Notes: a model not told the origin generated them from the letters alone. Numbered from the stretch's first letter, positions 7,396 through 55,844 are shown. The stretch: 64,000 bases of DNA from Gammaproteobacteria bacterium TMED78 (GCA_002171615.1 NHEF01000021.1:38574-102573); one strand, 5' to 3'. Numbers and translations are program-made.

Positions 7396-7418
7396 CAAAA
7401 AATGGGCCTATAGCCCAC
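7396..7418 (-). terminator. GC-rich hairpin followed by a U6 tract (intrinsic terminator or attenuator)
   Basis: The minus strand reads UGGGC-UAUAG-GCCCA followed by UUUUUU. It lies about 97 nt downstream of the sulfatase stop and only about 29 nt upstream of the rimP start codon. Confidence 0.55.
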
Positions 7419-7514
7419 TAAAAATTAAACACCTTAAAATGGTATTGTACTCAAAAATATTAGATTAGTCGATAATGTTTATCTATTTACCTGCCATTAA
7501 CAACTCTAGATAAA

Positions 7515-8945
7515 TTACCTCAACTGATTATTTTGGTCTGGAATATCGCTAACTGGTAAAAGAGACTCTAGCCTAGCTTTTATATCACTATAGTTTTGAT
7601 CAGAAGCCAAGTTATACCACTCATTCGGGTCTTCATGATGATCGTAAAGCTCTTCAGATCCATCAGAATATTTTATATACCTATAACGATCATCTCTAAT
7701 AGCATGATTTTTATAACCATATGTGCTTAAAGCAAAATGATTCCAATCTATATCTGGATTTTCAATTAACGGCCTTAAGCTTCTTCCCTCTAAATGATTA
7801 GGTATATCAAAGTCTATTAAATCAAGAAGAGTAGGATACAAATCCATTAAAGACACTACCTTATCAGTCTTTGTTCCTGCTTCCGTAATCCCTGGAGCAA
7901 CGATTATTAGAGGTACCCTTGTTGCTTCCTCCCATATAGTCTGTTTCCTCCAACGTAGTTTTTCTCCTAAATGCCAACCGTGATCAGACCACAGAACAAT
8001 AATCGTATCATCAGATTTCCCACTTTGTTCAAGCGCATCAATAAGGCGACCAACCATTGCATCAGCAAAACTTATACTTGCTAAATAAGCTTGTACAGCC
8101 TCTTCCCAAGTACCACTTTGAAGAACCCATTGATGAAGAGCAATCGGATCAAAACTATTGCTAGAAGATATCTTTCCAGCAGTAGGAATATCGTCTAAGT
8201 CAGAATCATTAACCAAGGGGAGCTGAATCTGATCAAGCGGATATAAATCAAAATACTCTGGAGCGTTATACCAAGGAAGGTGAGGTCTATAAATACCAAC
8301 ACCTATAAAACTATTATTATCATCCATATTTAAAATATTATTAATAGAATGAGTAACAATTTGGCCATCTCCAGTAGCCTCGTCCTCTGTTGCCATTCTA
8401 TGCCAATCAAAAAATCTAGACATAGGTGTTTGATTAGCTGGTCTATTAATTGGAGCTACTTCATCAGGAAGTTGTCTATCAATGGAGGGGTAATAGCTAT
8501 CCCAAGCATTCAAATCATTAAACCCCTTAAATGCTCGCGGATTATAAGTAGATGCATGAAATAACTTACCTGCTCCTTGTGTAGTATAGCCATTATCTTT
8601 CAAATGCTTTGGTATTGTTGGTGCATCATCAAAAATTTCAAGAGTCCGCCAATCTGGATTATTTAAATACACACCTGTAGAAGAAGGGGCTAAGCCAGAA
8701 AAAATAGCAGTCCTGGCAGGATTGCAAAGACTTGCAGGCGTATGTGCATTAGTAAATGTAATACCCCTTGAGGCAAGCGCATCTATATTTGGAGTCTTAA
8801 CTTGATCGTTGCCTCCAAGCGGCCCAACCCAGTCATTTAAATCATCAATCGCTATGAAAAGAATATTAGGACTAGAAGCCTCCTGTGAATTACAAAATAC
8901 AGGAAAAGCTATAAATAAAAATAAAAAAAGTATTTTTTTTGTCAT
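7515..8945 (-). CDS. exported Cys-type (formylglycine-dependent) sulfatase
   Basis: 476 aa with an N-terminal signal peptide. Sulfatase signature SLCNPARTAIFSGL (C-x-P-x-R) after the metal-binding IAIDDLNDW. A later motif WSDHGWHLGE is typical of the alkaline-phosphatase/sulfatase superfamily. Confidence 0.85.
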   Translation of the reverse strand: MTKKILFLFLFIAFPVFCNSQEASSPNILFIAIDDLNDWVGPLGGNDQVKTPNIDALASRGITFTNAHTPASLCNPARTAIFSGLAPSSTGVYLNNPDWRTLEIFDDAPTIPKHLKDNGYTTQGAGKLFHASTYNPRAFKGFNDLNAWDSYYPSIDRQLPDEVAPINRPANQTPMSRFFDWHRMATEDEATGDGQIVTHSINNILNMDDNNSFIGVGIYRPHLPWYNAPEYFDLYPLDQIQLPLVNDSDLDDIPTAGKISSSNSFDPIALHQWVLQSGTWEEAVQAYLASISFADAMVGRLIDALEQSGKSDDTIIVLWSDHGWHLGEKLRWRKQTIWEEATRVPLIIVAPGITEAGTKTDKVVSLMDLYPTLLDLIDFDIPNHLEGRSLRPLIENPDIDWNHFALSTYGYKNHAIRDDRYRYIKYSDGSEELYDHHEDPNEWYNLASDQNYSDIKARLESLLPVSDIPDQNNQLR

Positions 8946-8949
8946 TTAG

Positions 8950-9693
8950 CTACCTAGCGACTTGATCTTCGGCTAGAGCATAACACTCATACTCCAATAC
9001 ACGAAGATTTTCTTCTAGCCTTCTATAAAGAATCATACTCATTTCCCATGGCTCAGTATAAACCTCTGGATCTTCTAGGGTCACTTCATACTGCATATGA
9101 TTTGGCCCAATAGGGGTATATCTTTCAATAATATGTAATGAGGGGCTATGAAAGTTTCCTGACCTGTCTAGCCATGTCTCATCAGTAAAATGAACCACAT
9201 CAACTACAAGTGAGTCGCCTTCCCAAGATCCTCTAGAGTCTCCCATATACCACTGAATAGGACCAGGAGGATGCTCACTATCCATAAAAATATTTCTAAT
9301 AGTATGAACCCACTCATAAGTCATAATGACTTGATCTTCAGTCTGGAGAATTTGAAATGGATATGGCATGTAAGTAATCCTAGGTACGCCAACTAGTTTA
9401 CAGTTAGCCTCAGGATCATCTAATAATCTATTTTCATAATTGATGTCCCTTTGTTCTAATGCCCATTCTTGATAAGGAATTTCGTTTCCCTTAACTACAC
9501 CTATACCCGCGGGAATACCAAAGTCAGAACTACGATCTTGAATATTCCAAACAGCATTTCCTAAAGCTTGCCATATGCCTTCTATAATTGGATGACCTAA
9601 TTCATTTCTTGGGACTTCATAATTTTGAGAAATAGCAATATCTGAAGAAAGAATAGATAAAATTAAAATAAGTTTAAAATAAACGCTATACAT
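8950..9693 (-). CDS. exported protein of unknown function, Cys-pair family (paralog A)
   Basis: 247 aa with a signal peptide. Paralogous to 20899-21627 and 10093-11019: shared GDSxGxWEGD.LVVD...F.D.TWLDRSGNFHS..L.IIER block and a conserved Cys pair (ANCKLVGVPR ... YECYAL). The gap to the sulfatase gene is 4 nt. Confidence 0.8.
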   Translation of the reverse strand: MYSVYFKLILILSILSSDIAISQNYEVPRNELGHPIIEGIWQALGNAVWNIQDRSSDFGIPAGIGVVKGNEIPYQEWALEQRDINYENRLLDDPEANCKLVGVPRITYMPYPFQILQTEDQVIMTYEWVHTIRNIFMDSEHPPGPIQWYMGDSRGSWEGDSLVVDVVHFTDETWLDRSGNFHSPSLHIIERYTPIGPNHMQYEVTLEDPEVYTEPWEMSMILYRRLEENLRVLEYECYALAEDQVAR

Positions 9694-9715
9694 AAAATTA
9701 CTCCACTATTAAATT

Positions 9716-10096
9716 TTAGTCTTCAGCATTACCTGAGAAGAGAGTCTTCCCATCCTCTAAGGTTACTTCTTCGCCATCAATAGTCCTAGAGCCATCTCTT
9801 GATGGAAGGCCATGAACAATAATGGTAGACCCTAAAGGCAAATCATCTGGTCTCCAGCCCCTCCTATATAAAGAATTAGCTGCTCCAAACTCAACTTTCC
9901 AGATTTGATCCTCTCCTTCGTCACTTGTAACATTTAAATGTAACCATGCATGAGGATTTCTCCATTCCATTTCTGCAATAGATCCTGTGATTGCTATTTC
10001 TTTAGTTAAATCAAATTGCAGTGCTTTTGAATGATGTGCAAAAGAAAAAATTGAATAAAAATAAAAAAATAAAAAAAATGTTTTTTTAATCATCAC
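9716..10096 (-). CDS. small exported protein with predicted His-His mature N-terminus (possibly DUF6152-type)
   Basis: 126 aa; the signal peptide ends ...SIFSFA, followed by HHSKALQFD...WRNPHAWLHLNV. Paralog of 21632-22051. Overlaps the upstream gene by 4 nt. Confidence 0.8.
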   Translation of the reverse strand: MMIKKTFFLFFYFYSIFSFAHHSKALQFDLTKEIAITGSIAEMEWRNPHAWLHLNVTSDEGEDQIWKVEFGAANSLYRRGWRPDDLPLGSTIIVHGLPSRDGSRTIDGEEVTLEDGKTLFSGNAED

Positions 10097-11019
10097 CTAG
10101 ACTCCTCATATAAATCCCATGCATCTCTTAATCTTCTAGCTTCATCACCACTTATACCTGGATAAACTTTATAACCAACATTAAAAAATCCTTCTCTTGA
10201 AATAGCATTATCTTCATAACAAGCCTCTTCCCAAATCTCAAAATCAGAAGCATTTCTTCTAAAAGCAATAGCTATAGTAAAAGGCTGGGTAAAGACATTT
10301 TCATCCGTAACAGTTGCTTGGTAATGTAAAGTATTTGCATCAACCAAAGTAAATCTTTCCTCAACATGTGCCTCATCGGTAAAAAACCTCCCTCTTTGAT
10401 CAAGCCATGCTCTCGCATTTTGATTAGTCGTATCAACAACAAAGGTATTTTGATCCCAAGACCCAATAGAATCTCCATTCCATAATTTAATTTCTTCGCC
10501 TAATGTATGCGAATCTGAAAAAGGAATCATTCGAAAAGCATGCGCCTCTTCACCTTGTATAAGTATATTCTGAAAGGTCTGACTAAGCTGATATAAACCT
10601 GTCATATACATGCTTAAAGGAACACCATCTAATCGACAAATCGCATTGTGATGAACGTAAGCTATTCTATTATATTTTCTCTGAGCTTCTGCCCAAGGCT
10701 GTATAGGAACAAAACCACTCTCAGGAAACACAACTGAGCTTGATGTTTCTTGATCATCAAGCGTTTTAGGGTGCGCTTCTATACTCTCATGAGCGGCTAC
10801 TGTTCTTCTCCATACCCCTCTTAAATCAGGATCACCATTATCTAGCCTTGGAGGATCAAAAACCTTTATTGCTTGCAACGCACACTCATGAAAAATTGCC
10901 TGCTCGTTATCAGGGCATGATGAGTCTACTATCCAGGGCTGTGAAAAAGTACTAGGAACTAAAAACAAAGGTAAAAAAATATAAATAGTTGATGCGAAAA
11001 AAATTGTTTTAACACTCAA
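10093..11019 (-). CDS. exported protein of unknown function, Cys-pair family (paralog C, N-terminally extended)
   Basis: 308 aa with a signal peptide. Shares NGDSIGSWDQNTFVVDTTNQNARAWLDQRGRFFTDEAHVEERF and a Cys pair (AICRLDGVP ... EEACYED) with the 247-aa and 242-aa paralogs. Confidence 0.8.
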   Translation of the reverse strand: MSVKTIFFASTIYIFLPLFLVPSTFSQPWIVDSSCPDNEQAIFHECALQAIKVFDPPRLDNGDPDLRGVWRRTVAAHESIEAHPKTLDDQETSSSVVFPESGFVPIQPWAEAQRKYNRIAYVHHNAICRLDGVPLSMYMTGLYQLSQTFQNILIQGEEAHAFRMIPFSDSHTLGEEIKLWNGDSIGSWDQNTFVVDTTNQNARAWLDQRGRFFTDEAHVEERFTLVDANTLHYQATVTDENVFTQPFTIAIAFRRNASDFEIWEEACYEDNAISREGFFNVGYKVYPGISGDEARRLRDAWDLYEESR

Positions 11020-11121
11020 TGTAAGATTTCCCCCTATTAATTTTATAAAATCATATACTTTATTATTGGTATTATAATAACATTAGATATTAATTTAAAA
11101 AATAATTAGGCAATCTTATTT

Positions 11122-11376
11122 ATGTCTCAACAGAGAAATCCAAGATACTGGGCATCTAAGTGGTATACAACAAGGTTCGATGAAGAGCCATGGCCTGCTG
11201 GGTGGTACTGGCATGATGAAGATTATACTTGGATAGGCCCCTTTGGCTCTGAAGAAGAATCTAGAGCTAGTCTAGAAGAACACTTAAAATTAAATCCAAG
11301 GCCCGGTTACATAGGACAACCAGCTGTCATAGAAAATAAGCCTGAAGAAATTAAAAAAATTCTACCAAAAAAATAG
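11122..11376 (+). CDS. hypothetical Trp-rich small protein
   Basis: 84-aa ORF, divergent from the 11019 operon; no recognisable family and no obvious SD sequence. Confidence 0.45.
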   Translation: MSQQRNPRYWASKWYTTRFDEEPWPAGWYWHDEDYTWIGPFGSEEESRASLEEHLKLNPRPGYIGQPAVIENKPEEIKKILPKK

Positions 11377-11398: not shown

Positions 11399-12004
11399 CT
11401 ATTCTATTATTCTTTCCTCTATTCTTGCCTCTTCTCCAGTTTCTGCCTCTACTGTAATCAAAAGCTTAACTTGAGGAAAAAATTTGGGCAAGTCGTACAT
11501 AATATCAAATTCTGCTCGGTTTATAGTCGCGCTAGCGTCGGCTCCACAGACTTCTACCGTAGCTCTTCTAAAATGTGGCTGACATTGGAATTTATCAATG
11601 CTTAAGTTGACAGGCTTGCTAATTCCTTGAAGTGTAAGTATCCCTTCAGCTGATGTTGGCTCTCCATTAACAAAGTCAGTTAGAGTAGCTTTATAATAAG
11701 CAACTGGAAATTCTTTTGTTTTATATACATCGGAAATAAATCTATCATTCATCGGCCCCCAGCCAAAATCAATTTCCCTCATATCTATCTCTACTTCTAT
11801 ATCACCTGTTTGATTCTCTTTATCAAAAACTATAATTCCAGAAGTTCTATTAACCTTTCCCCTCCATATAGATAGCCCCCCTTGATGATCTGCTTCAAAA
11901 GCAGGGAAGGTATGAGCATTTTGAATATAATAAGTAGATGGCTCTGCAAATAAAGCATTAAGAAATACAAAAGTAGATAACAAACAAAATAAAAATCTGA
12001 ACAT
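11399..12004 (-). CDS. YceI-like periplasmic (polyisoprenoid-binding family) protein
   Basis: 201 aa with a signal peptide; YceI-like pattern NAHTFPAFEADHQGGLSIWRGKVNRTSGIIVFD ... LTLQGISKPVNL ... INRAEFDI. Confidence 0.75.
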   Translation of the reverse strand: MFRFLFCLLSTFVFLNALFAEPSTYYIQNAHTFPAFEADHQGGLSIWRGKVNRTSGIIVFDKENQTGDIEVEIDMREIDFGWGPMNDRFISDVYKTKEFPVAYYKATLTDFVNGEPTSAEGILTLQGISKPVNLSIDKFQCQPHFRRATVEVCGADASATINRAEFDIMYDLPKFFPQVKLLITVEAETGEEARIEERIIE

Positions 12005-12074
12005 AATCTTAATCTCCCTAATAAGGTATTGATTGATTTTAGATCTATAAAGATAAAAATGCTAGCAGCAAGCT

Positions 12075-13601
12075 CTAAAAAATTTTATCTAAATGTGATT
12101 TAGGTAATTTCTTTGTACACAAGGAAATAGCAATAGTCACAATAACTGCTAAAAAGCCAGATATCGTAGCAGCAGAATATGGGCTATCAGCATAAAATTC
12201 AAACCAATCCCCTAAATATAAAACCTTTGTAAATAATTTTGTATGTATAAGGATAAATATAATAGCACCAGTCCAGAAACCAAAAATTGCTCCAATCGAT
12301 GTAATGCCTCTCCAAATACAGCCTAAAACCAAAGGCCCCATCAAGGCTGCAGTGAACCCTCCAATGCCAATCCAGGTTAGTAAAACAACATTCATACCAA
12401 TCGTAAACCAAGCTAATATTGAGGCCCCAACTAATGTTAATGCTGTAACTACCCTGCTTACGATTAATACATTTCTATCAAGAAGATCTTGACTTTTATT
12501 AGGGTGAATTATTGGAGCAATGGTTCTCCTGTAGATGTCATTAGCAAAAACTTGTGAAGTAGATATAACTAGACCATCAGCTGTTGACATAACAGCTGAA
12601 AGAATTCCAACACCAAGTAATGCCGCTAACCAAGTAGGAAATATATCGATAAATAATCTAGGTAAAGCAGAGTTAGCTCCTAGAGAAGTATACAAAAGTT
12701 CATCTCCGAACATTCCTCTAGCTAAGGCCCCTCCTAGCGTAATAGCAGGAAGAATCATACCAAAGGAAAAAGCTAAAATCAGAAACTTATTTCTACTATT
12801 CTCGTCCTTTAATGCCCACAGTTTATTCCCAATATGTGGTAAAAGCCCTAAAGGAATATGGGCTATAACTAAACTTATATAAGACCAAACAGAAGATGTT
12901 ATAGGGGAATCTGAATAAAATGAACTTACTAATTGAGGATCATCATTTCTTAACCTAACAATTAAATTTGAAAACCCATCGCTACCAACACCAAGAAGAA
13001 AAAGTACTAAAATTATAATTGCAAGAAAAACCATTAATAAGCCCTGAGCACCATCTGTAAGGATGTCAGCATGAGCACCACCAAAAGTTATATAAGCTAA
13101 AAGAACTAATGTAGTAATAATTAGAGCCCATGATTTAGGAAGTCCAAGCATCATTTCAAACATTACTAACCCAGCTACTAGCTGACCAGCTAAATAAAAT
13201 AATAAAATTAAAGAAAAAAGCGCTACTGAAACTCTTAGGAAGTTAGATTTATATCTCTCTCCTAAATACTCTGGTATTGATCTAACTCCAGATGAATTAC
13301 CAAATTTAGCGATAGTTCTCTGAGATATTAATATACCTATGTATATCCCTAGGGGGTATAAAAATGCTATCCAAAGAGTAGATAAGCCATAAGTATAAGT
13401 TAATGCTGGCATTCCCAAAAAGGTTGCCCCGCTAGCGGCAGTAGAAGCAAAAGCCAAAGCTAATAATAATGGCCCGTAGGAGCTTCTAGCTGTTGCAAAA
13501 TCATCAGCATTTATAACCCTTTTATTACCTACGATACCAATAAAAATCATAATCAAAACATAGGCGCCAAGGAATAACCAAGACCAAGTAAAAAGACTCA
13601 T
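12075..13601 (-). CDS. sodium:solute symporter family (SSF) transporter
   Basis: 508 aa, polytopic membrane protein of about 13 TM segments; N-terminal pattern GNKRVINADDFATARSSYGPLLLALAFASTAASGATFLGMP is typical of SSF/PutP/PanF-type carriers. Confidence 0.8.
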   Translation of the reverse strand: MSLFTWSWLFLGAYVLIMIFIGIVGNKRVINADDFATARSSYGPLLLALAFASTAASGATFLGMPALTYTYGLSTLWIAFLYPLGIYIGILISQRTIAKFGNSSGVRSIPEYLGERYKSNFLRVSVALFSLILLFYLAGQLVAGLVMFEMMLGLPKSWALIITTLVLLAYITFGGAHADILTDGAQGLLMVFLAIIILVLFLLGVGSDGFSNLIVRLRNDDPQLVSSFYSDSPITSSVWSYISLVIAHIPLGLLPHIGNKLWALKDENSRNKFLILAFSFGMILPAITLGGALARGMFGDELLYTSLGANSALPRLFIDIFPTWLAALLGVGILSAVMSTADGLVISTSQVFANDIYRRTIAPIIHPNKSQDLLDRNVLIVSRVVTALTLVGASILAWFTIGMNVVLLTWIGIGGFTAALMGPLVLGCIWRGITSIGAIFGFWTGAIIFILIHTKLFTKVLYLGDWFEFYADSPYSAATISGFLAVIVTIAISLCTKKLPKSHLDKIF

Positions 13602-18403: not shown

Positions 18404-19588
18404 TTAGAGGATATTCTCTTCTAACCAACTATGAATATACTCTGCTATTTCCTTGCTATTCAACTCAAGCATCATCATGTGACCATTACCTGGAAGACCA
18501 ACTTCCTCCATTCTTACATATTCGGTATCAACACCAGCTTGATTCAACCAATTAGCTAAGCAATGATCAAAAATCCTATGATAACTTCCCTCTCCATTCA
18601 TAAAAAGCACTGGAATATCTGTAAGATTCACAAGCTGTCTTGCAGGTTCAGTTTGTTGATAACAAGGAACTAAATCCTGACCTTCAGCTTGGCTTTGTAA
18701 CTCAACAGATAGCTCAGATGGCTCACTAATTGGAGGATCATAAGTAATAGGTGTATTTCCTACTCCCCATGAAAGACCGCCTGACTCTCTATAACTAACA
18801 TTTGTTGTATCAACACCTCTTATTGGAGGAGCTGCAGGCTCAATAGTCACAATAGTCTCAACTAAATCAGGTCTTTCATCGGCAATATTCCAACCGAACC
18901 ACCCGCCTTGCGAATGTGTTAGAAGAATAACTGGTGTATTAATCATATCCAATAAGGCAATATTAGCAGCAATAGCCAAGTCTGCCTGCTCTCCGTAACC
19001 AGTAACATACTGGACTTGTGTTTTAGTAAATTTATCCATGATTGGATCGCCCATCAATCCAGATCCGGGCCACTGAGTTTGTTTTGGTGCTTGAGGATAG
19101 TCAGCTTCAGTTGCAGTAGCTGTAAATATTCTCTCAAGTAATGGTCCTGTTCTTGCACCTAAATCACTATTCACGCCTGGTATATATTGAGAACGCCCGC
19201 GAGTTGGATAATCCTGAACATATACTACATAGCCCATTTCAAGAAAATCATAAGCCCAGCCAGGCCTTCCATCTGGTGTTTGTAAGTAATCAACACCAGT
19301 TTGTCCATTTCCATGAAGAAATACAACTGGATAAGGATGTAAAATCTCATTGGGAACCATTACTTCAACATACATTGAGTTGGCCATAGTTTCACTACCT
19401 TCTTCTCCAACATAATCTCCGCCTACATAGAAAAATCCTCTTTGGGCAATATTCTCAGATGAGACCATGGGTATTCCATCGTTAGGGGTAGCGACAGATT
19501 GATCTTGAACATCCATCTGAGCACAAGCAGATAGCAAAAAGACAGCTCCCACTAAAGAAATTATAGAATTAAATTTAAATGTTTTCAT
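18404..19588 (-). CDS. alpha/beta hydrolase lipoprotein
   Basis: 394 aa; lipobox FLLSAC; nucleophile-elbow-like LLTHSQGGWFG; a late His (GNGHMMMLE) is consistent with an alpha/beta hydrolase triad. Last gene of the 24005-18404 operon. Confidence 0.75.
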   Translation of the reverse strand: MKTFKFNSIISLVGAVFLLSACAQMDVQDQSVATPNDGIPMVSSENIAQRGFFYVGGDYVGEEGSETMANSMYVEVMVPNEILHPYPVVFLHGNGQTGVDYLQTPDGRPGWAYDFLEMGYVVYVQDYPTRGRSQYIPGVNSDLGARTGPLLERIFTATATEADYPQAPKQTQWPGSGLMGDPIMDKFTKTQVQYVTGYGEQADLAIAANIALLDMINTPVILLTHSQGGWFGWNIADERPDLVETIVTIEPAAPPIRGVDTTNVSYRESGGLSWGVGNTPITYDPPISEPSELSVELQSQAEGQDLVPCYQQTEPARQLVNLTDIPVLFMNGEGSYHRIFDHCLANWLNQAGVDTEYVRMEEVGLPGNGHMMMLELNSKEIAEYIHSWLEENIL

Positions 19589-19609
19589 ACTTTCACTCTC
19601 CTTAAAAAA

Positions 19610-20875
19610 TTATTGCCATGCGGCATAAACTGGCTTACCTACCATTGTTTCGATCCTTGCACCAGCTCTTGGCTTAAACTTTTGAATTCTTCCATTGCCA
19701 ACTTCGGCAACATAAAAATTACCTTCTTGATCAACACTTAAACCATGAACTCCCCACATTCCACCAGGAAAATCACCAAGAATTCCCCAAGAATATAAGA
19801 AGTTCCCGTCTAAGTCATAACCTAGAATCTTACTTGTTGCTCGATCCGCAGCCCAAAGTATATTATCAGCTCCTATATAAAACAAATGAATATCTGCAGG
19901 CTCCTCACCAAAGCTCCATTCATCTAAATATTCACCATTATCAGTAAATACTTGGACTCTATTATTAGCTCTATCATTAACAAATACTCTTCTTGACTGA
20001 ACATCAACGGCTACACCGTGAACATTATTCATAAAACCCGGTCTTGTTTCATTAGGTGGGTTGCCAGCTTCGCCCCAAGACATTAAGTAATTACCGTCAT
20101 TATCAAACTTAACTACACGGGTATTTGCATACCCATCTGCCACAAAAAAAGCATCTGGTAAAAATGCCATAAATGTTGGCCTTGAAAAATGTTCTTCGTC
20201 ATTTCCAGAAACATTAGGAATACCTATTGTTTGGACTAATTCAGAACCATCGTTGGTAAATTTAAAAATAGCATGACGAAAATCATCAACTACCCAAACA
20301 TGTTTCTCAGGATCATATGGATTTATTGTCACATAATGAGGCCTTCTAAAAAGAGAATCCCATTGTGTCCAGTCCTCGATAATATCCCCTTCACGATTAA
20401 CAACTACAAGACAATGATTCCACCTATGATCAACTCCATACTCTCCTCTATCTGTGTCGTCTCCTTCAAGTGCTCCTGGTAAGCTAGCTCTTGGCCCTAC
20501 TGAAGCGTTTCTCCAGGGTAATTGAGCAACTGGAAAAGATAAAGCTGGCCCTGCCTCAGGGTAAACAGTTCTTTCTGGAGCATCTATATTGGGTAATTCT
20601 CCCCTATGAAGCAAAAAAACTCGGTCTGGACTTTCAGCAAAAACACTTTGTCCCGCGCCATAAGTCCAAGCTTCGTTTCCAGGTAGCTCCGAGATATCCT
20701 GTGGCCAATTTTCTACAACCTCGTATGGACCAAACTGATCTTGTCCACCTCTTAATCCTGGAACTGCTGCAAATGATGCTTGAATAGAATTATCTTCTGA
20801 TGATTGATTATTACTAACATATATAACTGCTGAAGCAACAATTAAGGCTGCTATTAGCAAAAGATTTTTATTCAT
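19610..20875 (-). CDS. exported NHL-repeat six-bladed beta-propeller protein (PAL-like)
   Basis: 421 aa with a signal peptide; repeated NHL-type units such as HGVAVDVQSRRVFVNDRANNRVQVFTDNGEY and HGLSVDQEGNFYVAEVGNGRIQKF. Paralog of 22077-23381. Confidence 0.8.
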   Translation of the reverse strand: MNKNLLLIAALIVASAVIYVSNNQSSEDNSIQASFAAVPGLRGGQDQFGPYEVVENWPQDISELPGNEAWTYGAGQSVFAESPDRVFLLHRGELPNIDAPERTVYPEAGPALSFPVAQLPWRNASVGPRASLPGALEGDDTDRGEYGVDHRWNHCLVVVNREGDIIEDWTQWDSLFRRPHYVTINPYDPEKHVWVVDDFRHAIFKFTNDGSELVQTIGIPNVSGNDEEHFSRPTFMAFLPDAFFVADGYANTRVVKFDNDGNYLMSWGEAGNPPNETRPGFMNNVHGVAVDVQSRRVFVNDRANNRVQVFTDNGEYLDEWSFGEEPADIHLFYIGADNILWAADRATSKILGYDLDGNFLYSWGILGDFPGGMWGVHGLSVDQEGNFYVAEVGNGRIQKFKPRAGARIETMVGKPVYAAWQ

Positions 20876-20898
20876 AATAAGCTCTCCCTAAAGTTAAA

Positions 20899-21627
20899 TT
20901 ATTCATCATATCCAGCTAGCTCTTCTTCCCAGACTCTAAAAGTAAAATTATCCATACATGAAAACTCTTCTATAGCCCAATCTACTTTTCTATAGCGCCT
21001 ACTTCCTGACCATGCTTCTGTAAATGCTATAGGATCAGATATTTCAATATCAATAACTAAATTTTGTTCATCATCAAGATAAATCCTCTCAATCACTTTC
21101 AATTGATCACTATGTGGAACACCTTCTCTGTCTATCCATGTCCTATCATTAAAATTAACTGTTTCTACAACAAGAACACCATCCTCCCAATATCCAATAG
21201 AATCTCCCATCCACATTGGTCCTAAGTCAGTCCTATGGCCTCTTCCATCAGTATAGATTTGTCTAACTACGTGATCATACTCAAAAAGCATTAGAACTCT
21301 TCCTGGAGTTTGAATAATTTCCATTGGAAAAGGATGCATATAAATTCTTGGAGTGCCAGGTCTAAAACATTGATAGACAGGGTCATTTGTCTCTAAAACC
21401 GGAACGCCCATTGCACCAAAAGTTGGCTTAGCTTGATCATACAATGATCTAGCCCATGAGGTCATAGGAGGAAGCTCTCCTATTAGTTGAGAGTTTTGAA
21501 AAGACCTAGTATTTTCAAATGGAAAATTATTCCATACACCAGATAAATCTGCCGAACTATTGCCTTCCTGGGCATAAACACTACCAAAAAATAGTATTAG
21601 TAAAAAAAATTTATATAAACTTTTCAT
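20899..21627 (-). CDS. exported protein of unknown function, Cys-pair family (paralog B)
   Basis: 242 aa with a signal peptide; MGDSIGYWEDGVLVVETVNFNDRTWIDREGVPHSDQLKVIERI and a Cys pair (YQCFRPGTPR ... EFSCMD). Paralogous to 8950-9693 and 10093-11019. Confidence 0.8.
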   Translation of the reverse strand: MKSLYKFFLLILFFGSVYAQEGNSSADLSGVWNNFPFENTRSFQNSQLIGELPPMTSWARSLYDQAKPTFGAMGVPVLETNDPVYQCFRPGTPRIYMHPFPMEIIQTPGRVLMLFEYDHVVRQIYTDGRGHRTDLGPMWMGDSIGYWEDGVLVVETVNFNDRTWIDREGVPHSDQLKVIERIYLDDEQNLVIDIEISDPIAFTEAWSGSRRYRKVDWAIEEFSCMDNFTFRVWEEELAGYDE

Positions 21628-21631
21628 AAAT

Positions 21632-22051
21632 CTAAAGCACTGATGAATCTAAAGCTTCTAAATAGTTTTCATCACCATCTAAATAGTTACCCTCTGAATC
21701 AACTACTAACCGTAGTCTAAGGAATGGCGCGCCATTCCTTGCAGGATTTCCACCAAGAATAATCTCATCTCCCGGTTGAAGAACATCCTTGTTCCACCTC
21801 GCCGCTCCTACATCTCTCCTAGCTAAGCGATTAGGACTGGTTAATTCACCTGACCATTCCACAGTTTCGCCATTGTCATCGATTACTTCAATGTAGATGA
21901 GCACATGGGGATTAATAAAATTAAACTTAGTCACTTTTCCACGAACAGCAACATTTAAATCATTATTAAATGAGGCGCCTCCATGGTGAGAAAAAGCATT
22001 TGTCATAAAGATCGTAGTAATAGTAAAAAAACATAGTATTTTAAAAGCCAT
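21632..22051 (-). CDS. small exported protein with predicted His-His near the mature N-terminus (possibly DUF6152-type)
   Basis: 139 aa; the signal peptide ends ...MTNAFS, followed by HHGGASFNND...FNFINPHVLIYIEV. Paralog of 9716-10096. The gap to the next gene is 4 nt. Confidence 0.8.
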   Translation of the reverse strand: MAFKILCFFTITTIFMTNAFSHHGGASFNNDLNVAVRGKVTKFNFINPHVLIYIEVIDDNGETVEWSGELTSPNRLARRDVGAARWNKDVLQPGDEIILGGNPARNGAPFLRLRLVVDSEGNYLDGDENYLEALDSSVL

Positions 22052-22076
22052 TAACCTCTCCTCTTATTAAATTGAT

Positions 22077-23381
22077 CTACCAACTAGATCTAATAGGCTG
22101 TCCGACTAAGTAATCAGGATTTGCTCCATTTCTAGGTGAATATTTCTGGAAACCACCATTATCAACCTCTGAAATATAAAAATTACCATCTTCATCAACA
22201 CTCATACCGTGAACTCCCCACATTCCACCAGGAAAATCACCCCATGTACCCCAAGAATACAAAAAATTACCATCAAGATCGAATTTAAGAATCTTATTTG
22301 TTCCTCGATCTGCCGCCCAAAGATAACCATCATCAGTGATCATAAATAGATGAACATCTGAAGGCGCTGGGCCAAAGCTCCATTGATCAAGAAAGCTTCC
22401 ATTTTCATCAAAAACTTGAACTCGATGATTATATCTATCATTAACAAATACCCTATTTGTGTTTGGATCAACTGCTATACCATGGACGTTATGAAAATGA
22501 TTTGGTCTTGTGTCTTGACGAGAATCATCTGATGGCTCTCCCCACGAGGTTAAATAGTTTCCATCGCTATCAAATTTAACCACTCTTGTTCCATTATAGC
22601 CATCAGCCACTACAAAACTACCGTCAGGAAACCAATCTAAAAAACTTGGTCGATTAAAATGAGTTTCATCATCGCCCAGCTCACCATAAGTACCGATAGT
22701 CTGAACTAGCTCGCTACCATCATTAGTGAACTTATGAATAACATGTTTATGATCATCTACAATCCAAACATGCTTTTCAGGATCATAGGGGCTAATAGCA
22801 ATATAGTGCGGTCTCTGAAGGATAGAGTCCCATTGATCCCAAACATCAATTATATTGCCATCTCCATCAAAAATGACTATGCAATTTTTCCATAAAGCAT
22901 CTACACCTATCCTGCCTCCTCTTGACTCCCAAACAGAAATAGCTGTTTCTGCCAAGCTACCAGCACCGCCATTTGCAGGAAGACTTGAGACAGTTGCGTC
23001 TCTCCAAGGGAGTCTACCTACTGGAAAATAAATACTAGGAGCAACTTCTGAAAGAGATCTAGTGCTTGGTCTATCTATATTTGGTAACTGGCCTCTCTGA
23101 AGTGCAAATATCTTATCAGGACTTTCAGCAAAGATACTTTGACCTGCTCCATAAGTCCAGCCTTCATTACCTTCCAAAGTTGAAATATCTGTAGGCCAAT
23201 CCTCTACAATATTATAAGGTCCTAGGATATCTTGACCACTCCTCTCACCAGGAACTGCAGCAATACTTGAGCTAGTATCCATAGAGCTTTGCTCTTGACC
23301 ACAAGCACTAACAAAAATCGAAAAAAGAAAAATAAGGTAAAATCTAGGGCTAAATAATCCTGAAAAAATAAAATGCGTCAT
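22077..23381 (-). CDS. NHL-repeat six-bladed beta-propeller lipoprotein (PAL-like)
   Basis: 434 aa; lipobox FVSAC; NHL units HGIAVDPNTNRVFVNDRYNHRVQVFDENGSF and HGMSVDEDGNFYISEVDNGGFQKY. Clearly homologous along its whole length to 19610-20875. Confidence 0.8.
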   Translation of the reverse strand: MTHFIFSGLFSPRFYLIFLFSIFVSACGQEQSSMDTSSSIAAVPGERSGQDILGPYNIVEDWPTDISTLEGNEGWTYGAGQSIFAESPDKIFALQRGQLPNIDRPSTRSLSEVAPSIYFPVGRLPWRDATVSSLPANGGAGSLAETAISVWESRGGRIGVDALWKNCIVIFDGDGNIIDVWDQWDSILQRPHYIAISPYDPEKHVWIVDDHKHVIHKFTNDGSELVQTIGTYGELGDDETHFNRPSFLDWFPDGSFVVADGYNGTRVVKFDSDGNYLTSWGEPSDDSRQDTRPNHFHNVHGIAVDPNTNRVFVNDRYNHRVQVFDENGSFLDQWSFGPAPSDVHLFMITDDGYLWAADRGTNKILKFDLDGNFLYSWGTWGDFPGGMWGVHGMSVDEDGNFYISEVDNGGFQKYSPRNGANPDYLVGQPIRSSW

Positions 23382-23423
23382 AGTTCCCCTCTAAGATTAG
23401 TAGTTTCAATAACTGAATAAACT

Positions 23424-24005
23424 CTAGGATAGCAATTTTTTTCGACTCATCCAAATTCTATATACCTCTATCAAGCACAAGATCATAAGATAGATTGTTG
23501 CCGTAGTTCTATTAAATGCCGTTAGGATCCAATGAAAAAATATTAAAACTACTGCTAAATAAACAAATCTATGCAATTTTTTCCAATACCTTCCCATAAA
23601 TCTTTGAGAGTAATTATTACTTGTAATAGCCAGTAGTAAAAAGATAATAAGTCCTAGCCAGCCAGATAAATACTCTAAAGATATGAAATCATTAAGTATT
23701 CTATCTTTATCAGCAATTCTATCTAAATACACAATCGTATGTAATAAAGCATAAGCAAAGCTTGCTACCCCAAAATAACGTCTATTTGATAATAGCCATT
23801 TCGACAAATAATTATCTGGAAAAGTTAACATAAAAGGGGTTACAAATAAAGAAAGAAACAATAACTGTACAGATATTTTTCCAGATAAATGAATAGTTTC
23901 TCCATAGAAAATATTTTGAAAATAATAATTAAAACATATGCTTATAAAAGGAACTGATAGCACTATCCAAATTAAATACTTCGATTTTAATAACTTTACC
24001 AACAA
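23424..24005 (-). CDS. MsrQ/YedZ-like ferric-reductase-domain haem-b membrane protein
   Basis: 193 aa with about 6 TM segments. Aligns by eye with E. coli YedZ/MsrQ: RRYFGVASFAYALLHTIVYL versus RRLLGLWCFAWATLHLTSY, and YWKKLHRFVYLAVVLIFFHW versus [20 protein letters not shown], including the conserved His residues. TTG start. Confidence 0.8.
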   Translation of the reverse strand: MLVKLLKSKYLIWIVLSVPFISICFNYYFQNIFYGETIHLSGKISVQLLFLSLFVTPFMLTFPDNYLSKWLLSNRRYFGVASFAYALLHTIVYLDRIADKDRILNDFISLEYLSGWLGLIIFLLLAITSNNYSQRFMGRYWKKLHRFVYLAVVLIFFHWILTAFNRTTATIYLMILCLIEVYRIWMSRKKLLS

Positions 24006-24662: not shown

Positions 24663-26837
24663 ATGAAAATTAAACTACTTATTCTATCTTCGCTTTGCTC
24701 GTTAAGCTCTTTAAGCTTTTCGCAAGACTCCAATGATATTGAAAATATTACAATTATTGGAGAAAGAGTAATTCATGGCTCAGCTACAACTATCGAGCCA
24801 GATGAATTACAAATGTTTGAACATATTGATGTTCATAAGGCCCTTGCAAATGTTCCAGGTATTAATTTTAGACCTGAAGAAGGTTACGGTCTTAGACCAA
24901 ACATTTCTATCAGAGGTACATATGATGATAGATCTGGAAAGGTAACATTAATGGAAGATGGTGTATTAATTGCGCCTGCTCCATATGCAGCCTCTTCAGC
25001 ATATTATTTCCCTTCATTTGGAAGAATTCATTCCGTAGAAGTGCTAAAAGGTCCATCAGCTATCACAGAGGGTCCTTACACTATTGGTGGTGCAATTAAT
25101 TTAATCAGCACTCCTATTCCAGATTCTACAGGTGGGTTTTTTAACCAAGAAATGGGATCTGATAGCGCATCAAGAACACATGCAGCATATGGTGTGTCTA
25201 CAGAAAATATTGGTTTTCTCCTTGAGGGACATTTCGCTCAAACTGATGGCTTCGATACAATAGAGCATGTTGGTGGTGATACTGGCTTTGATAAAGATGA
25301 TATTCTGTTTAAATTCAGACTTAATTCTGACCAAGGATCAGATATCTACCATCAGTTAGACTTTAAATATCAGGATTCTTCAGAAAAATCTAATCAAAGT
25401 TATGTTGGTCTTTCAAAGGCAGACTTTAATAGCAATCCTAGACAGCGTTATGGATTTACTAGAAATGACTTAATGGATAATGCACACGATCAAGTCGTTA
25501 TCACATATAGTGTTGATTTTGGCGATCTTGATATTTCTGCAACCTCATATAAAAATAATTTTAAGCGTGATTGGTTTAAAGTAGATAAAATTGGTTATAA
25601 CGGAGCTGCAAAAGGTATCAATAATATGATCGACTATGCTAATGCAGGTACTGCTGACGCTATCGCGGTTTTAAGAGGCACCAATACAACGGCTGAAGAA
25701 ATAAAGTATAAGCATAACAATAGAGTTTATGTTTCAGAAGGAACAGTGATAAAAGGTTCATGGGCAACTGATAATCAAACCTTAACTTTCGGCTATCGTT
25801 CTACTGAAGACTCAGAAGATCGTATGCAATGGTATGAAACTGCGAATTGGCAAGCTGGAAAACTCAGTGCATTAACAGTTGGCTCTAAACCAGGTCTATC
25901 TTCAAACAATAGAATTACAGTTGCTAAAGCAAATGCTATCTTTTTAAATGAAGAGTTAAGACTTGATAACTTAACCATAACAGCTGGTGTTAGAAAGGAA
26001 AATTGGGATATAAATGAAACTCGCTGGAATGAAACAGCGAGAACTACTGTAGCAACAGGATATCCTAAATCAAAAACAAATAATAAAGAAAAAGATGAAA
26101 CTCTATTTGGTTTTGGTGCTGGCTATAGTCTTTCAGATAGTAGTGAAGTATTCCTTGGATATCATCAAGGCTTTTCTCCAACAACTGGAGAAGCGAAACC
26201 TGAAAGCGCTAATAGCATGGAGCTAGGCTGGAGAGGTCAAATAGGAAATGCTAATGTTCAAGCAGTTTACTTTAATACTGATTACAAAAATATTGTTGGA
26301 ACCTGTACTAACTCTGCTTCTGGTATTTATGAAGGATGTACTATTGGTGATACTTTCGATGGCGGTCAAGCAACAATCTCTGGGTTAGAACTTTCGGCAT
26401 CTACTTCATTTACTAATGCATCAGGATCAACTATCCCTCTTATGATAAACTTTACAAGCTCAGATGGTAAATTCGATACAAGCTTTGAAAGTTCTTACTG
26501 GGGGAGTGTAAACAAAGGGATGAAGCTTCCTAATATGCCAGATAGTCAGCTTTCACTTACCACAGGACTTGTTATGAATAATGGTTGGTCAACAATGATA
26601 AACTTGACTAATTTTGGAAGTACTTGCTCAGTCGCATCTTGTGCTACAGATACAACTATAGATTCATATTCTGTTATTGACCTTTCAATTAACAAGGAAA
26701 TTAATGACCGATCTAATGCTTACTTGGTAATAGGAAATGTTACTGATAGTAGTAATATTATTGCTAGAGCACCAAAAAATGGCATCAGGACTCAAAGACC
26801 TCAATACTTCAATGCAGGACTAAGATTTAATTTCTAG
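24663..26837 (+). CDS. TonB-dependent outer-membrane receptor
   Basis: 724 aa; signal peptide; plug-domain motifs (ENITIIGERV...; IRGT...GKVTLMEDGV; VEVLKGPSAITEGPYTIGGAINLIS); long beta-barrel region ending with the terminal aromatic GLRFNF. Confidence 0.9.
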   Translation: MKIKLLILSSLCSLSSLSFSQDSNDIENITIIGERVIHGSATTIEPDELQMFEHIDVHKALANVPGINFRPEEGYGLRPNISIRGTYDDRSGKVTLMEDGVLIAPAPYAASSAYYFPSFGRIHSVEVLKGPSAITEGPYTIGGAINLISTPIPDSTGGFFNQEMGSDSASRTHAAYGVSTENIGFLLEGHFAQTDGFDTIEHVGGDTGFDKDDILFKFRLNSDQGSDIYHQLDFKYQDSSEKSNQSYVGLSKADFNSNPRQRYGFTRNDLMDNAHDQVVITYSVDFGDLDISATSYKNNFKRDWFKVDKIGYNGAAKGINNMIDYANAGTADAIAVLRGTNTTAEEIKYKHNNRVYVSEGTVIKGSWATDNQTLTFGYRSTEDSEDRMQWYETANWQAGKLSALTVGSKPGLSSNNRITVAKANAIFLNEELRLDNLTITAGVRKENWDINETRWNETARTTVATGYPKSKTNNKEKDETLFGFGAGYSLSDSSEVFLGYHQGFSPTTGEAKPESANSMELGWRGQIGNANVQAVYFNTDYKNIVGTCTNSASGIYEGCTIGDTFDGGQATISGLELSASTSFTNASGSTIPLMINFTSSDGKFDTSFESSYWGSVNKGMKLPNMPDSQLSLTTGLVMNNGWSTMINLTNFGSTCSVASCATDTTIDSYSVIDLSINKEINDRSNAYLVIGNVTDSSNIIARAPKNGIRTQRPQYFNAGLRFNF

Positions 26838-50882: not shown

Positions 50883-50957
50883 TGGCGCTCCCTAGGGGAA
50901 TTGAACCCCTGTTTCCGCCTTGAGAGGGCGGCGTCCTAACCGCTAGACGAAGGGAGC
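50883..50957 (-). tRNA. tRNA-Glu, anticodon CUC, CCA encoded
   Basis: The minus strand reads GCTCCCT-TC-GTCT-AGCGGTTA-GGAC-G-CCGCC-CTCTCAA-GGCGG-AAAC-AGGGG-TTCAATT-CCCCT-AGGGAGC-G-CCA. The cloverleaf folds cleanly and closely parallels E. coli tRNA-Glu except for C34. Confidence 0.9.
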
Positions 50958-55188: not shown

Positions 55189-55844
55189 ACTACCTAAAAA
55201 AACTTAAACTTATTGTAATGATTTCTGGAGAGGGAACTAATCTTCAAGCACTGATCAATGCTCAAATAGAAAAAAAAATAAATACAGAAATACTAGCTGT
55301 TATAAGTGATAACGAACATGCTACCGGCCTCAACAGGGCCAAGAAAGCTAATATTCCTTGTATTTACTTAAATAGAGACTTATTCAGTAGTAAAGAAGAA
55401 TTTGAAACAGAGATATCAAAGAATATCATTGAGCTTGATCCTGATTTAATTATTTTAGCTGGATTTATGAGAGTTCTAGGTAAAAACTTTATAAATAAAT
55501 TAAAAGGAAAAATTATAAATATACATCCATCTTTATTACCCGCATTGAAGGGATTGAATACTCATGAAAGAGCTATTGATTCAGGAAATTTTTTTCATGG
55601 GGCTTCTGTACACTTTGTTATAGCAGAGTTAGATAGTGGACCAAGCATCATGCAATATAAAATTGCTATTAAAAAAGATGATAATAAGAGAACTCTTAAG
55701 AATAGAGTACATAAGGGTGAGTACTTAATTCTTGTTGAAACAGTTAAATTATTTACAATGAAAAACTTAAAATTAGATAATAACTCTATTATAATTAACG
55801 GTGAAATAATGAAAAATCCTATTTTATATGAAGAAGATTTCTAA
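55185..55844 (+). CDS. purN: phosphoribosylglycinamide formyltransferase
   Basis: 219 aa; ISGEGTNLQALI and NIHPSLLP motifs; TTG start overlapping the purM stop. Confidence 0.93.
   Translation: MNYLKKLKLIVMISGEGTNLQALINAQIEKKINTEILAVISDNEHATGLNRAKKANIPCIYLNRDLFSSKEEFETEISKNIIELDPDLIILAGFMRVLGKNFINKLKGKIINIHPSLLPALKGLNTHERAIDSGNFFHGASVHFVIAELDSGPSIMQYKIAIKKDDNKRTLKNRVHKGEYLILVETVKLFTMKNLKLDNNSIIINGEIMKNPILYEEDF

Follow-up and report, generated by a model that had tools for sequence, protein, structure and literature searches.

The closest described counterparts of the genes analysed here are the calycins (lipocalins such as bacterial Blc, FABP/CRABP and YceI-like proteins), the histidine-brace copper proteins, the small OB-fold proteins CusF (a Cu/Ag chaperone), CcmE (a heme chaperone) and YgiW/BOF, and the PHM-PAL-cytochrome b561 system of peptide amidation. 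To our knowledge, the histidine-brace families known so far all have a beta-sandwich fold, and none is an OB-fold. The electron-transfer copper site of PHM (CuH) is made of two consecutive histidines plus one distant histidine. The histidine brace is understood here as defined in the available text of the review PMC10952591, according to which an N-terminal His chelates transition metals with a preference for Cu(II); DUF6152, the small protein family of the present locus, is absent from the families named in that text.

The window is a stretch of 64,000 nucleotides from Gammaproteobacteria bacterium TMED78. ORF calling confirmed four minus-strand genes at 7515-11019, encoding the big protein C308, the small protein S126, the big protein C247 and a sulfatase (Table 1). 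The C308 gene starts with TTG, with GGGGGA ahead of it. The C308/S126 junction reads GAGGAG..AGGTGATG and contains a 4-nt GTGA overlap; in public gene calls the S126 ATG lies one codon downstream, giving 125 aa and an overlap with C308 of 1 nt. Between S126 and C247 lie 22 nt, GGAG being placed 8 nt ahead of the ATG, and between C247 and the sulfatase 4 nt (TAG CTAA ATG). The ORFs and the direct reading of the sequence thus bear out the four-gene operon and the junctions described in the initial annotation: three genes for exported proteins and one for an exported Cys-type sulfatase form one operon. The promoter-like and terminator-like elements around it are consensus matches only, and the region contains just as many promoter-like sites as expected from shuffling. 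The GC and GC3 values of the four genes are those of the neighbouring genes and give no hint of recent import.

Table 1. Coordinates of the features of both loci in the window
Feature	Position	Strand	Description
Promoter-like TTTAAA-17-TATAAT	11071-11099	-	Upstream of C308; 10/12 consensus matches, consensus match only
C308	10093-11019	-	Exported big-family protein, predicted calycin-like; upstream-position class of the triple
S126	9716-10096	-	DUF6152 small exported protein, predicted OB-fold
C247	8950-9693	-	Exported big-family protein, downstream-position class
Sulfatase	7515-8945	-	Cys-type (formylglycine) S1, signal peptide, last gene of the operon
Terminator-like hairpin and T run	7401-7419	-	Between sulfatase stop and rimP start; consensus match only
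MsrQ-like heme membrane protein	23424-24005	-	Context of the second module
NHL propeller	22077-23381	-	Context of the second module, upstream of S139
S139	21632-22051	-	Second DUF6152 paralog
C242	20899-21627	-	Big-family paralog immediately downstream of S139
NHL propeller	19610-20875	-	Context of the second module, downstream of C242
Alpha/beta hydrolase lipoprotein	18404-19588	-	Context of the second module (whole context 18404-24005)
TonB-dependent receptor	24663-26837		Adjoins the second operon

The small proteins of both loci, S126 and S139, belong to DUF6152 (PF19649), with profile scores of 102.2 bits (E 1.7e-29) and 72.8 bits at a Pfam gathering cut-off of 27 bits. The signal peptide of S126 ends with ...FSFA, so that the mature N-terminus is predicted to be His21-His22, and that of S139 is predicted to be His-His-Gly. 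Among 126 unique domains, H21 is conserved in 124, H22 in 125, E69 in 120, and both P48 and H49 of the NPH turn in all; S126 and S139 share the combination of signal peptide, HH and NPH. In 116/118 sequences HH is preceded by A, G, T or S at position -1, which fits cleavage by signal peptidase exactly before HH as the predicted site. No Met or Cys is conserved in the family alignment, and the near-universal features are only the N-terminal His-His, predicted to be free, one further His and one Glu. The predicted structure of S126 (pLDDT 85) is an OB-fold, with OB-fold matches in Foldseek. PDB sequence and profile searches with DUF6152 returned chance-level matches only, and literature searches on DUF6152/PF19649 and on a histidine brace with an OB-fold found no papers.

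For the big proteins C308, C247 and C242, scans of Pfam and NCBIfam gave nothing at E<=0.1, and PDB sequence and profile searches gave chance-level matches only and no solved relative; among the chance-level PDB matches of the two families, one to LPMO AA9 (E 0.28) was not counted as evidence. A weak tblastn match of C247 (38 aa, E 0.009) at 55560-55673 falls within an ordinary ORF and was set aside as chance. The family nevertheless comprises 18,129 clusters at 50% identity, with more than 3,500 homologs in a word-indexed search, and is among the larger protein families without a model or study. Its Cys pair (Cys98/Cys237 in C247) is conserved as C98 in 189/197 domains and as C237 in 176/197. 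C308 carries two conserved pairs, C35/C46 and C128/C267, and C35/C46 is the second invariant pair of C308-type proteins. The AF2 model of C247 (pLDDT 82) has 8-9 strands, predicted to form a barrel, and an N-terminal extension, and all nine best Foldseek matches are FABP, CRABP or bile-acid-binding proteins, although these matches are weak (E 6e-3, TM 0.35 by query and 0.6 by target). G39-x-W41 is invariant in the first strand, the basic residues R224 and R225 at the last strand (216-224), its candidate packing partners as in calycins, show at least 90% conservation, and about nine polar residues are conserved across the whole family; no His is conserved throughout its 197 domains. These proteins are therefore predicted to be disulfide-stapled calycin/FABP-like barrels.

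A second small protein followed by a Cys-pair protein had been noted in the same order at 22051-20899, and these are S139 and C242. Pairwise BLASTP aligned S126 with S139 (32% identity, E 6e-17), C247 with C242 (35%, E 2e-28), C308 with C242 (30%, E 1e-15) and C308 with C247 (30%, E 3e-31), in agreement with the proposed paralogy. On the other hand, S139 has orthologs 59-60% identical and C242 orthologs 69-70% identical in L089 and L090, and the gene order NHL-S-B-(ABH)-NHL-ABH is kept in L090 with orthologs of 72-82%. Because the window copies are only 32-35% identical, while each has orthologs of 59-83% with a kept context elsewhere, the two copies are evidently ancient paralogs within a multi-copy family. 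The cassette proposed in the initial annotation is thus real and its paralogs align, but a recent local duplication was rejected, given 30-35% identity within the window and 59-83% in other genomes. It follows that the closeness of the copies within 15 kb, offered as an argument for a selected unit, carries little weight, and the cross-genome data carry the case. Elsewhere, too, the family is strongly multi-copy: L001 has three S-containing genes, and a 16-kb stretch of L089 carries five DUF6152 genes.

A big-family gene lies on the same strand and at most 300 nt from the DUF6152 gene in 76/80 loci of other species, which span Gamma- and Alphaproteobacteria, Acidobacteriota, Gemmatimonadota and Acidimicrobiia; the remaining four are short contigs or have big-family genes nearby on the opposite strand. 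The expected co-occurrence of the two families was therefore found, and DUF6152 turns out to be the obligate partner of the big family. Moreover, there are 18 natural DUF6152-barrel fusions with the order signal peptide, HH-DUF6152 and full barrel including the GxW strand, and none has the barrel first. Such fusion into one chain argues independently that the small and big proteins act together, and the constant order fits the need for a free N-terminal His. Upstream partners of DUF6152 match C308 best in 61/77 cases, and downstream partners match C247 best in 53/62. The orthologs of C308 (45-83% identical) are positioned upstream of DUF6152 in other genomes, and the triple as a whole has position-specific orthologs at 45-83% identity, Acidobacteriota included. 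As judged from sequence, C308 is a position-specific ortholog class and more than a third relative, and the triple is a unit conserved across phyla. Neither outcome that would have refuted the conserved pair, paralogs that fail to align or a pair that is not adjacent elsewhere, was observed, but the unit at the first locus is the triple of a C308-type protein, DUF6152 and a C247-type protein. Unrelated hypothetical ORFs, or a recent local duplication without a selected joint function, are favoured only by the big proteins having no annotation in Pfam, NCBIfam or the PDB; against the size of the family, the adjacency, the fusions, the position-specific orthologs and the divergence of the window paralogs, the probability of this explanation is next to nil. 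The C308-, S126- and C247-type proteins almost certainly form a real heteromeric module.

The fourth gene of the operon encodes a sulfatase with PF00884 at 167 bits and an additional SGSH_C match in Pfam. In the PDB, 40 sulfatases were matched at E<=1e-20, the best being the arylsulfatase 6hhm_A (E 7.6e-53). The enzyme is assigned to the Cys-type because C74-N-P-A-R78 corresponds to the C-x-P-x-R maturation motif; no formylglycine-generating enzyme was found among ten mid-sized ORFs of the window. The triple is followed by sulfatase orthologs in L009 (79% identical), L028 (60%) and L030 (59%). In other genomes the gene after the triple is a sulfatase, an Amidohydro_2 protein with a Tat signal, a soluble PQQ dehydrogenase or none, and the triple stands alone in L101 and L104. 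NHL propellers are a further context across genomes, and this variation supports the view that the module was recruited to different enzyme contexts; the exchangeability of the fourth gene argues that the triple does something in its own right. The enzymes directly adjacent to the module carry Sec, Tat or lipoprotein export signals. Other recurring neighbours are FadL/TodX channels, TonB receptors, alpha/beta hydrolases and RPE65 oxygenases. A TonB receptor, which also adjoins the second operon and is missing at the first locus, occurs within 8 kb of the module in only 18/93 sources, mostly from one clade, and its coupling to the module was rejected as a core feature. Inherited synteny, more than functional coupling, appears to account for a large part of the recurring neighbourhood (RraA-like, CoA-transferase, rimP). 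The L103 triple sits in the same rimP-nusA-infB slot as that of the window. Rariloculaceae loci have a divergent 110-aa membrane ORF upstream of the triple, and this ORF is different from orf84 of the window; a literature search on Rariloculaceae found nothing relevant.

The PQQ dehydrogenase is the commonest immediate downstream neighbour (8/55, in Proteobacteria and Acidobacteriota). For the gammaproteobacterial enzymes, the alignment to the membrane-bound family is confined to its periplasmic part; the PQQ dehydrogenases are of the membrane-bound glucose dehydrogenase family but lack the membrane anchor, and no cytochrome c gene is adjacent to the module in L103. These observations would suit a periplasmic electron-transfer or quinone-binding partner, e.g., an electron acceptor for the adjoining anchor-less dehydrogenases. 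However, such a role would leave unexplained the triples that stand alone or beside sulfatases and amidohydrolases, the module has neither a heme-binding CxxCH motif nor a cupredoxin signature, and no dehydrogenase is nearby in the window. We consider it highly improbable.

We hypothesize, with a probability of roughly 0.45, that the module handles a small molecule in the periplasm, as a complex built round a metal site on the N-terminal histidines. That these histidines of DUF6152 form a metal site is probable in itself. Cleavage of the signal peptide would free the His-His of the small subunit, which together with the invariant His49 and with Glu69 of the neighbouring strand would bind a metal ion, most likely copper by precedent for N-terminal histidines. 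The barrels would hold a small molecule, probably hydrophobic or amphipathic. The complex would capture it in the periplasm at the metal site and either pass it to the co-encoded exported enzymes, here the sulfatase, or modify it. We infer this mechanism, including the putative grouping of His21/22, His49 and Glu69 and its nearness to the barrel, from sequence and predicted folds. Binding and hand-over would be somewhat more likely than catalysis, although neither reaches an even chance. The occurrence of the same ortholog class beside chemically unrelated enzymes argues against substrate-specific hand-over. Orthologs of the triple are unusually conserved across phyla (56-78% identical), and this, with the conserved polar residues, suits an enzyme better than a carrier. 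A role in lanthanide or calcium handling, to which the neighbouring PQQ dehydrogenase, sulfatase and PepSY genes might have pointed, was rejected on the ground that histidines are the conserved ligands.

The same putative His-His/His/Glu site could also belong to a periplasmic metallochaperone or metal buffer for copper, zinc or nickel, which would load or protect exported metalloenzymes, with the barrels only as scaffold. Periplasmic OB-fold metal chaperones such as CusF are generally known, and the neighbouring sulfatases, amidohydrolases and PQQ dehydrogenases are of metal-dependent classes. The available text of the review connects the non-LPMO brace proteins CopC, YcnI and PmoF1 with copper trafficking (PMC10952591). 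However, the many strongly diverged paralogs (L089, L001) are unusual for metal homeostasis, and no CopA/B/D, Cus or Znu genes occur among the neighbours listed (the 25 commonest families per listing). Furthermore, sulfatases and PQQ dehydrogenases use Ca2+, which His ligands disfavour, and Tat-exported amidohydrolases are loaded before export. This function is very unlikely.

A periplasmic metal-dependent enzyme, probably a Cu- and O2-dependent oxidase or oxygenase, would have a histidine-brace-like site on the OB subunit and substrate in the barrel. Neighbouring hydrolases, lyases and dehydrogenases would process the products, and membrane heme proteins would give electrons. The N-terminal His and the second invariant His follow the histidine-brace logic, every fusion leaves the N-terminus free, and the ortholog conservation and family-wide polar residues point the same way. 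Redox neighbours include the MsrQ-like protein of the second operon, PepSY_TM, cytochrome c, DAO, FAD_binding_3 and the anchor-less PQQ dehydrogenases. In the second operon, the NHL proteins have a match (3fvz, E 1.6e-17) in the PAL lyase domain of peptidylglycine amidating monooxygenase, and the carriers found belong to lineages generally known as predominantly aerobic. Against this, the known brace proteins all have another fold, the big family has no common His for a second site, the first locus of the window encodes no redox partner, and sulfatase and amidohydrolase partners require no oxidised substrate. Most non-LPMO histidine-brace-like sites seem to serve copper transport, without convincing redox activity, in the available text of PMC10952591. 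The enzyme reading is rather unlikely. Its most specific form, in which DUF6152 and its calycin-like partner are a new class of periplasmic copper enzyme, is distinctly unlikely: the OB-fold site would oxidise barrel-held small molecules with electrons from MsrQ-like or PepSY_TM proteins and pass the products to PAL-like NHL propellers, alpha/beta hydrolases, the sulfatase and lactonase-type amidohydrolases. If true, the second operon would function as a bacterial counterpart of the PHM-PAL-cytochrome b561 system.

The big family occurs in marine Gammaproteobacteria, sphingomonads, Acidobacteriota and others. Even if the periplasmic complex merely binds a ligand, its recognition would give the first structural and partner annotation for tens of thousands of "hypothetical protein" entries, and it would show that the adjoining slot for a sulfatase, PQQ dehydrogenase or amidohydrolase is exchangeable. 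If mature DUF6152 does bind copper, this would place a fold outside the beta-sandwich families listed so far for the histidine brace, and it would mean a new periplasmic activity in abundant heterotrophs of ocean and soil.

Compared with the PHM-PAL-cytochrome b561 system, only the second operon is similar, in its PAL-matching NHL propellers and transmembrane heme protein (MsrQ-like), but it has no Cu2_monooxygenase (PHM) domain, and DUF6152 and the barrel are not homologous to PHM. The His-His and distant His of DUF6152 recall the arrangement in CuH. The orthologous operon of L090 does not keep the MsrQ-like gene. In the window, the MsrQ-like protein scores 71 bits against an equivalog cut-off of 130, and no ORF for an MsrP-like molybdoprotein lies next to its gene. 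With CusF, CcmE and YgiW/BOF, DUF6152 shares a small exported single OB-fold domain, and CcmE is found at rank 47 among the Foldseek matches of the S126 model. CcmE also has its functional histidine on a terminal segment, although at the C-terminal and not the N-terminal end. DUF6152 differs from all three in having no sequence similarity to them and a dedicated barrel partner. The conserved Met and Trp of the CusF site are missing, and a CusF-like His/Met/Met/Trp site for Cu(I)/Ag(I) was rejected because no Met is conserved. Like the histidine-brace copper proteins (LPMOs, pMMO PmoB, CopC, PmoF1, YcnI/DUF1775, X325), DUF6152 is secreted, has an invariant His as predicted mature N-terminus and carries a further invariant His and a carboxylate. 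It falls outside the known brace families LPMO, CopC, YcnI, PmoB and X325, with no PDB sequence matches, a predicted OB-fold, two consecutive N-terminal histidines and a copper site that is putative. The big proteins resemble calycins in the predicted antiparallel barrel, similar size and export, and also in the G-x-W of the first strand, the basic residue in the last strand and the stapling disulfide. Unlike calycins, they have no sequence-level match to calycin Pfam families, and they are distinguished by an insertion of about 70 residues that separates the first strand from the remaining barrel, by many conserved charged residues, and by obligate pairing or fusion with an OB-fold protein.

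An ORF scan recovered the four minus-strand genes that the initial annotation had listed at the first locus, namely C308, S126, C247 and a sulfatase, and their junctions were read directly. C308 ends in ...GAGGAGTCTAGGTGA; the proposed 4-nt overlap with S126 holds if S126 starts at the overlapping GTG and shrinks to 1 nt if the ATG one codon on is used, as in the public gene calls, which give a protein of 125 aa. The 22-nt spacing between S126 and C247 and the 4 nt from the C247 stop to the sulfatase ATG are as described, and a GGAG lies 8 nt before the C247 ATG. The GC and GC3 of the genes at this locus and of the second pair (S139 and C242) agree with those of neighbouring genes. Just upstream on the same strand are a YceI-like protein and a sodium:solute symporter, an arrangement found unchanged in six metagenome contigs (L093-L098) from this organism and not kept in other genomes. 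A Trp-rich 84-aa ORF, for which the family search gave no match, is divergent from the operon; its counterpart adjoining the triple (C308-type, DUF6152 and C247-type genes) in L009 is 85% identical, and those some kb off in L010, L011 and L013 are 62-64% identical. A separate 110-aa ORF, transcribed divergently from the triple in Rariloculaceae-type loci (L001, L005, L012, L014 and L022), had no match in Pfam and was judged by eye to be absent from the window; from its hydrophobic stretches and Arg-rich tail, it is probably a membrane protein. The tRNA-Glu (CTC) was the sole RNA gene detected in the window, and no other Rfam family reached gathering score there.

Table. Coordinates of the features discussed; L-numbers denote loci or contigs other than the window.
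Feature	Sequence	Positions	Strand	Basis
C308 gene	window	10093-11019	minus	ORF scan
S126 gene	window	9716-10096	minus	ORF scan
C247 gene	window	8950-9693	minus	ORF scan
Sulfatase gene	window	7515-8945	minus	ORF scan
Triple with sulfatase	window	7515-11019		
Promoter-like TTTAAA-17-TATAAT	window	11099-11071	minus	consensus match only
Terminator-like hairpin between sulfatase stop and rimP	window	7419-7401	minus	consensus match only
Trp-rich 84-aa ORF	window	11122-11376	plus	
YceI-like protein and symporter	window	11399-13601	minus	
Second operon	window	18404-24005	minus	
C242 gene	window	20899-21627		
S139 gene	window	21632-22051		
tRNA-Glu (CTC)	window	50883-50957	minus	
PQQ dehydrogenase	L016	2981-4873		
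PQQ dehydrogenase	L010	10177-12144		
PQQ dehydrogenase	L103	10151-12067		
Triple with PQQ dehydrogenase	L103	8015-12067		
110-aa ORF	L001	6541-6873	minus	conserved
110-aa ORF	L005	6152-6484	minus	conserved
Fusion ORF truncated at N-terminus	L030	6366-7295		

DUF6152 and the big family (C308, C247, C242 and homologs) are obligate partners. A DUF6152 alignment scan, with one genome per species, confirmed 416 relatives, and among the best 80 loci kept, 76 have a same-strand big-family gene within 300 nt, so that the adjacency expected from the window recurs elsewhere; the other four are on contigs of 3-7.6 kb or have big-family genes near on the opposite strand. There are also 18 natural fusion ORFs (309-409 aa), one of them at 14145-15152 in L001, all in the order DUF6152 then barrel and never the reverse. 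The signal peptide and the His-His are visible in every fusion except the truncated one in L030, and the GxW strand of the barrel is kept in all seven examined in full. Among cultured sphingomonads, Novosphingobium humi KACC 19094 has the big-family gene B302, DUF6152 and TetR in order, and Croceibacterium atlanticum 26DY36 two DUF6152 genes, the big-family gene B268 and a TonB-dependent receptor; Novosphingobium sp. PP1Y is a further cultured carrier. Of 77 big-family genes lying upstream of DUF6152, 61 have C308 as their best match, and of 62 lying downstream, 53 have C247. Ortholog identity is 45-83% in the C308 class and 46-78% in the C247 class, Acidobacteriota included, with about 60-75 residues at least 95% conserved in each. 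From this position-matched orthology and conservation, C308 is an integral, position-specific partner and the unit is the triple, which is conserved. The module was also seen in two metagenome-assembled genomes labelled Bifidobacteriaceae (L056) and Enterobacteriaceae (L066); mis-binning may explain these labels, since all other carriers come from predominantly aerobic environmental lineages.

The fourth gene, which follows the triple, is exchangeable. In the window it is a sulfatase (PF00884, 167 bits) with a signal peptide and the Cys-type motif C74-N-P-A-R78 that had been expected; its nearest solved structure is 6hhm_A (E 7.6e-53), and orthologs follow the triple in L009, L028 and L030 (79, 60 and 59% identity, respectively). 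In Rariloculaceae loci the fourth gene encodes a Tat-signal Amidohydro_2 protein, elsewhere a signal-peptide PQQ dehydrogenase, and in L101 and L104 there is none, which bears out the proposed recruitment to varied enzyme contexts. The alignment of this PQQ dehydrogenase with the membrane-bound glucose/quinate dehydrogenase family covers only the periplasmic part of the latter. Those co-transcribed with the triple in L016, L010 and L103 belong to the membrane-bound glucose/quinate/shikimate family, carry a signal peptide and have no N-terminal membrane (quinone-binding) domain. The triple with PQQ dehydrogenase in L103 is directly upstream of rimP-nusA-infB, the same slot that the triple with sulfatase fills in the window, so a soluble PQQ dehydrogenase stands in the place of the sulfatase and the fourth gene was swapped in situ. 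Immediately downstream on the same strand, the 55 loci have PQQ dehydrogenase (8), Amidohydro_2 (6), sulfatase (3), RPE65 (2) and PepSY_TM (2), and LeuA-like (4), which probably belongs to the next operon. Around triple-type loci, out to 2.5 kb, the recurring families are CoA-transferase III (7), RraA-like (7), DUF4159 (7) and rimP (5), and this looks like inherited synteny, not functional coupling. Near the more distant loci, PQQ, cytochrome c, FAD_binding_3, SnoaL_4, PepSY_TM, DUF6644 and FadL/TodX are each represented by 2-4 proteins only within the same distance. Membrane proteins of the DUF6644 family turn up repeatedly near the module, with two in N. humi (L099, plasmid) and two among the distant loci (including L047). 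Of 93 sources, 18 have a TonB-dependent receptor within 8 kb, and the enzymes directly adjoining the module have export signals.

The second pair has the same gene order as S126-C247, and its paralogy with the first was borne out by pairwise alignment: S126/S139 share 32% identity (E 6e-17), C247/C242 35% (E 2e-28), C308/C242 30% (E 1e-15) and C308/C247 30% (E 3e-31). By tblastn with all these proteins, no further copies were found in the window. The duplication, however, is not a local one, because S139 and C242 have their own orthologs in L089 and L090 (59-60% and 69-70% identity, respectively). The L090 operon (NHL-S-B-ABH-NHL-ABH) stands beside purA and Band_7 genes and mirrors that of the window, with orthologs, at 72-82%, of the two window propellers and of the hydrolase, and L089 has five DUF6152 genes within 16 kb. 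The orthologs in matching context make the window modules old paralogs of a multi-copy family. As to the context of the second operon, the NHL propellers and the hydrolase stand, but the heme membrane protein is only MsrQ-like, falling below the MsrQ cut-off; the operon has no MsrP partner for it, and L090 keeps the gene order without it. For the two propellers, which are 57% identical to each other, peptidylglycine amidating monooxygenase gives a match in its PAL lyase domain (3fvz, E 1.6e-17).

The small proteins belong to DUF6152 in Pfam (S126 102 bits, S139 73 bits, cut-off 27), and in the literature library searched no paper mentions DUF6152 or PF19649. Of 126 unique domains taken from different genomes, 124 have His21, 125 His22, all Pro48 and His49, and 120 Glu69; Met or Cys is conserved nowhere in the alignment. 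In 116 of 118 sequences A, G, T or S directly precedes the His-His; the residue there comes after a hydrophobic stretch, so signal-peptidase cleavage is predicted to leave His as residue 1. An N-terminal free histidine chelates transition metals, with copper preferred, according to the review PMC10952591. The S126 model (pLDDT 85) is a five-stranded OB-fold, matched in Foldseek by the anticodon-binding OB domains of lysyl-tRNA synthetases, PriB and SSB, with CcmE lower down. Strand 2 of the model opens with His49 and strand 3 closes with Glu69 in one hairpin, and by topology the two should be neighbours.

The big proteins had no match in Pfam or NCBIfam, nor in the PDB by sequence or profile. 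The C247 model (pLDDT 82) is a barrel of 8-9 strands plus an N-terminal extension, and a FABP, CRABP or bile-acid-binding protein takes each of the top nine places among its PDB matches, although these are weak (E 6e-3; TM 0.35 by query, 0.6 by target). The family carries a calycin signature, in which an invariant G39-x-W41 belongs to the first strand and R224/R225 to the last one, and a conserved Cys98-Cys237 pair; in C308-type proteins there is a further invariant pair, C35/C46. Its profile, searched against 1.84 billion representatives, returned 18,129 representative clusters at E<=1e-3, and 10,281 with the stricter cut-off E<=1e-10. The homologs listed for the family carry no Pfam domain.

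Owing to their predicted signal peptides, the module proteins are taken as exported. The fusions, by always keeping one order, suggest that the free N-terminus matters, and a calycin barrel suggests a ligand that is small and often hydrophobic. With the predicted N-terminal His, these features lead us to favour a periplasmic complex in which a small molecule would be handled at a metal centre. The complex may oxidise this molecule, or may only bind it and hand it over. Strong conservation, polar residues that are conserved and redox neighbours scattered among the loci speak for catalysis; the fold, paralogs that have expanded next to varied hydrolases and the absence of a redox partner from the first locus speak for binding. 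That the complex is a metallochaperone is less likely, because the family is multi-copy and there are no metal-transport genes among the neighbours listed. From sequence and models, we rate the module as a putative exported accessory protein that would bind metal and ligand; a categorically new copper enzyme is improbable.

The module could be placed in none of the characterised families tested. The big family has the calycin signature in common with calycins, but not a sequence link to any calycin family. With CusF, DUF6152 shares the predicted OB-fold and lacks the Met/Trp site. Known histidine-brace proteins are beta-sandwiches, whereas the small subunit of the module is a predicted OB-fold, and the N-terminal His, predicted for the module, is common to both.
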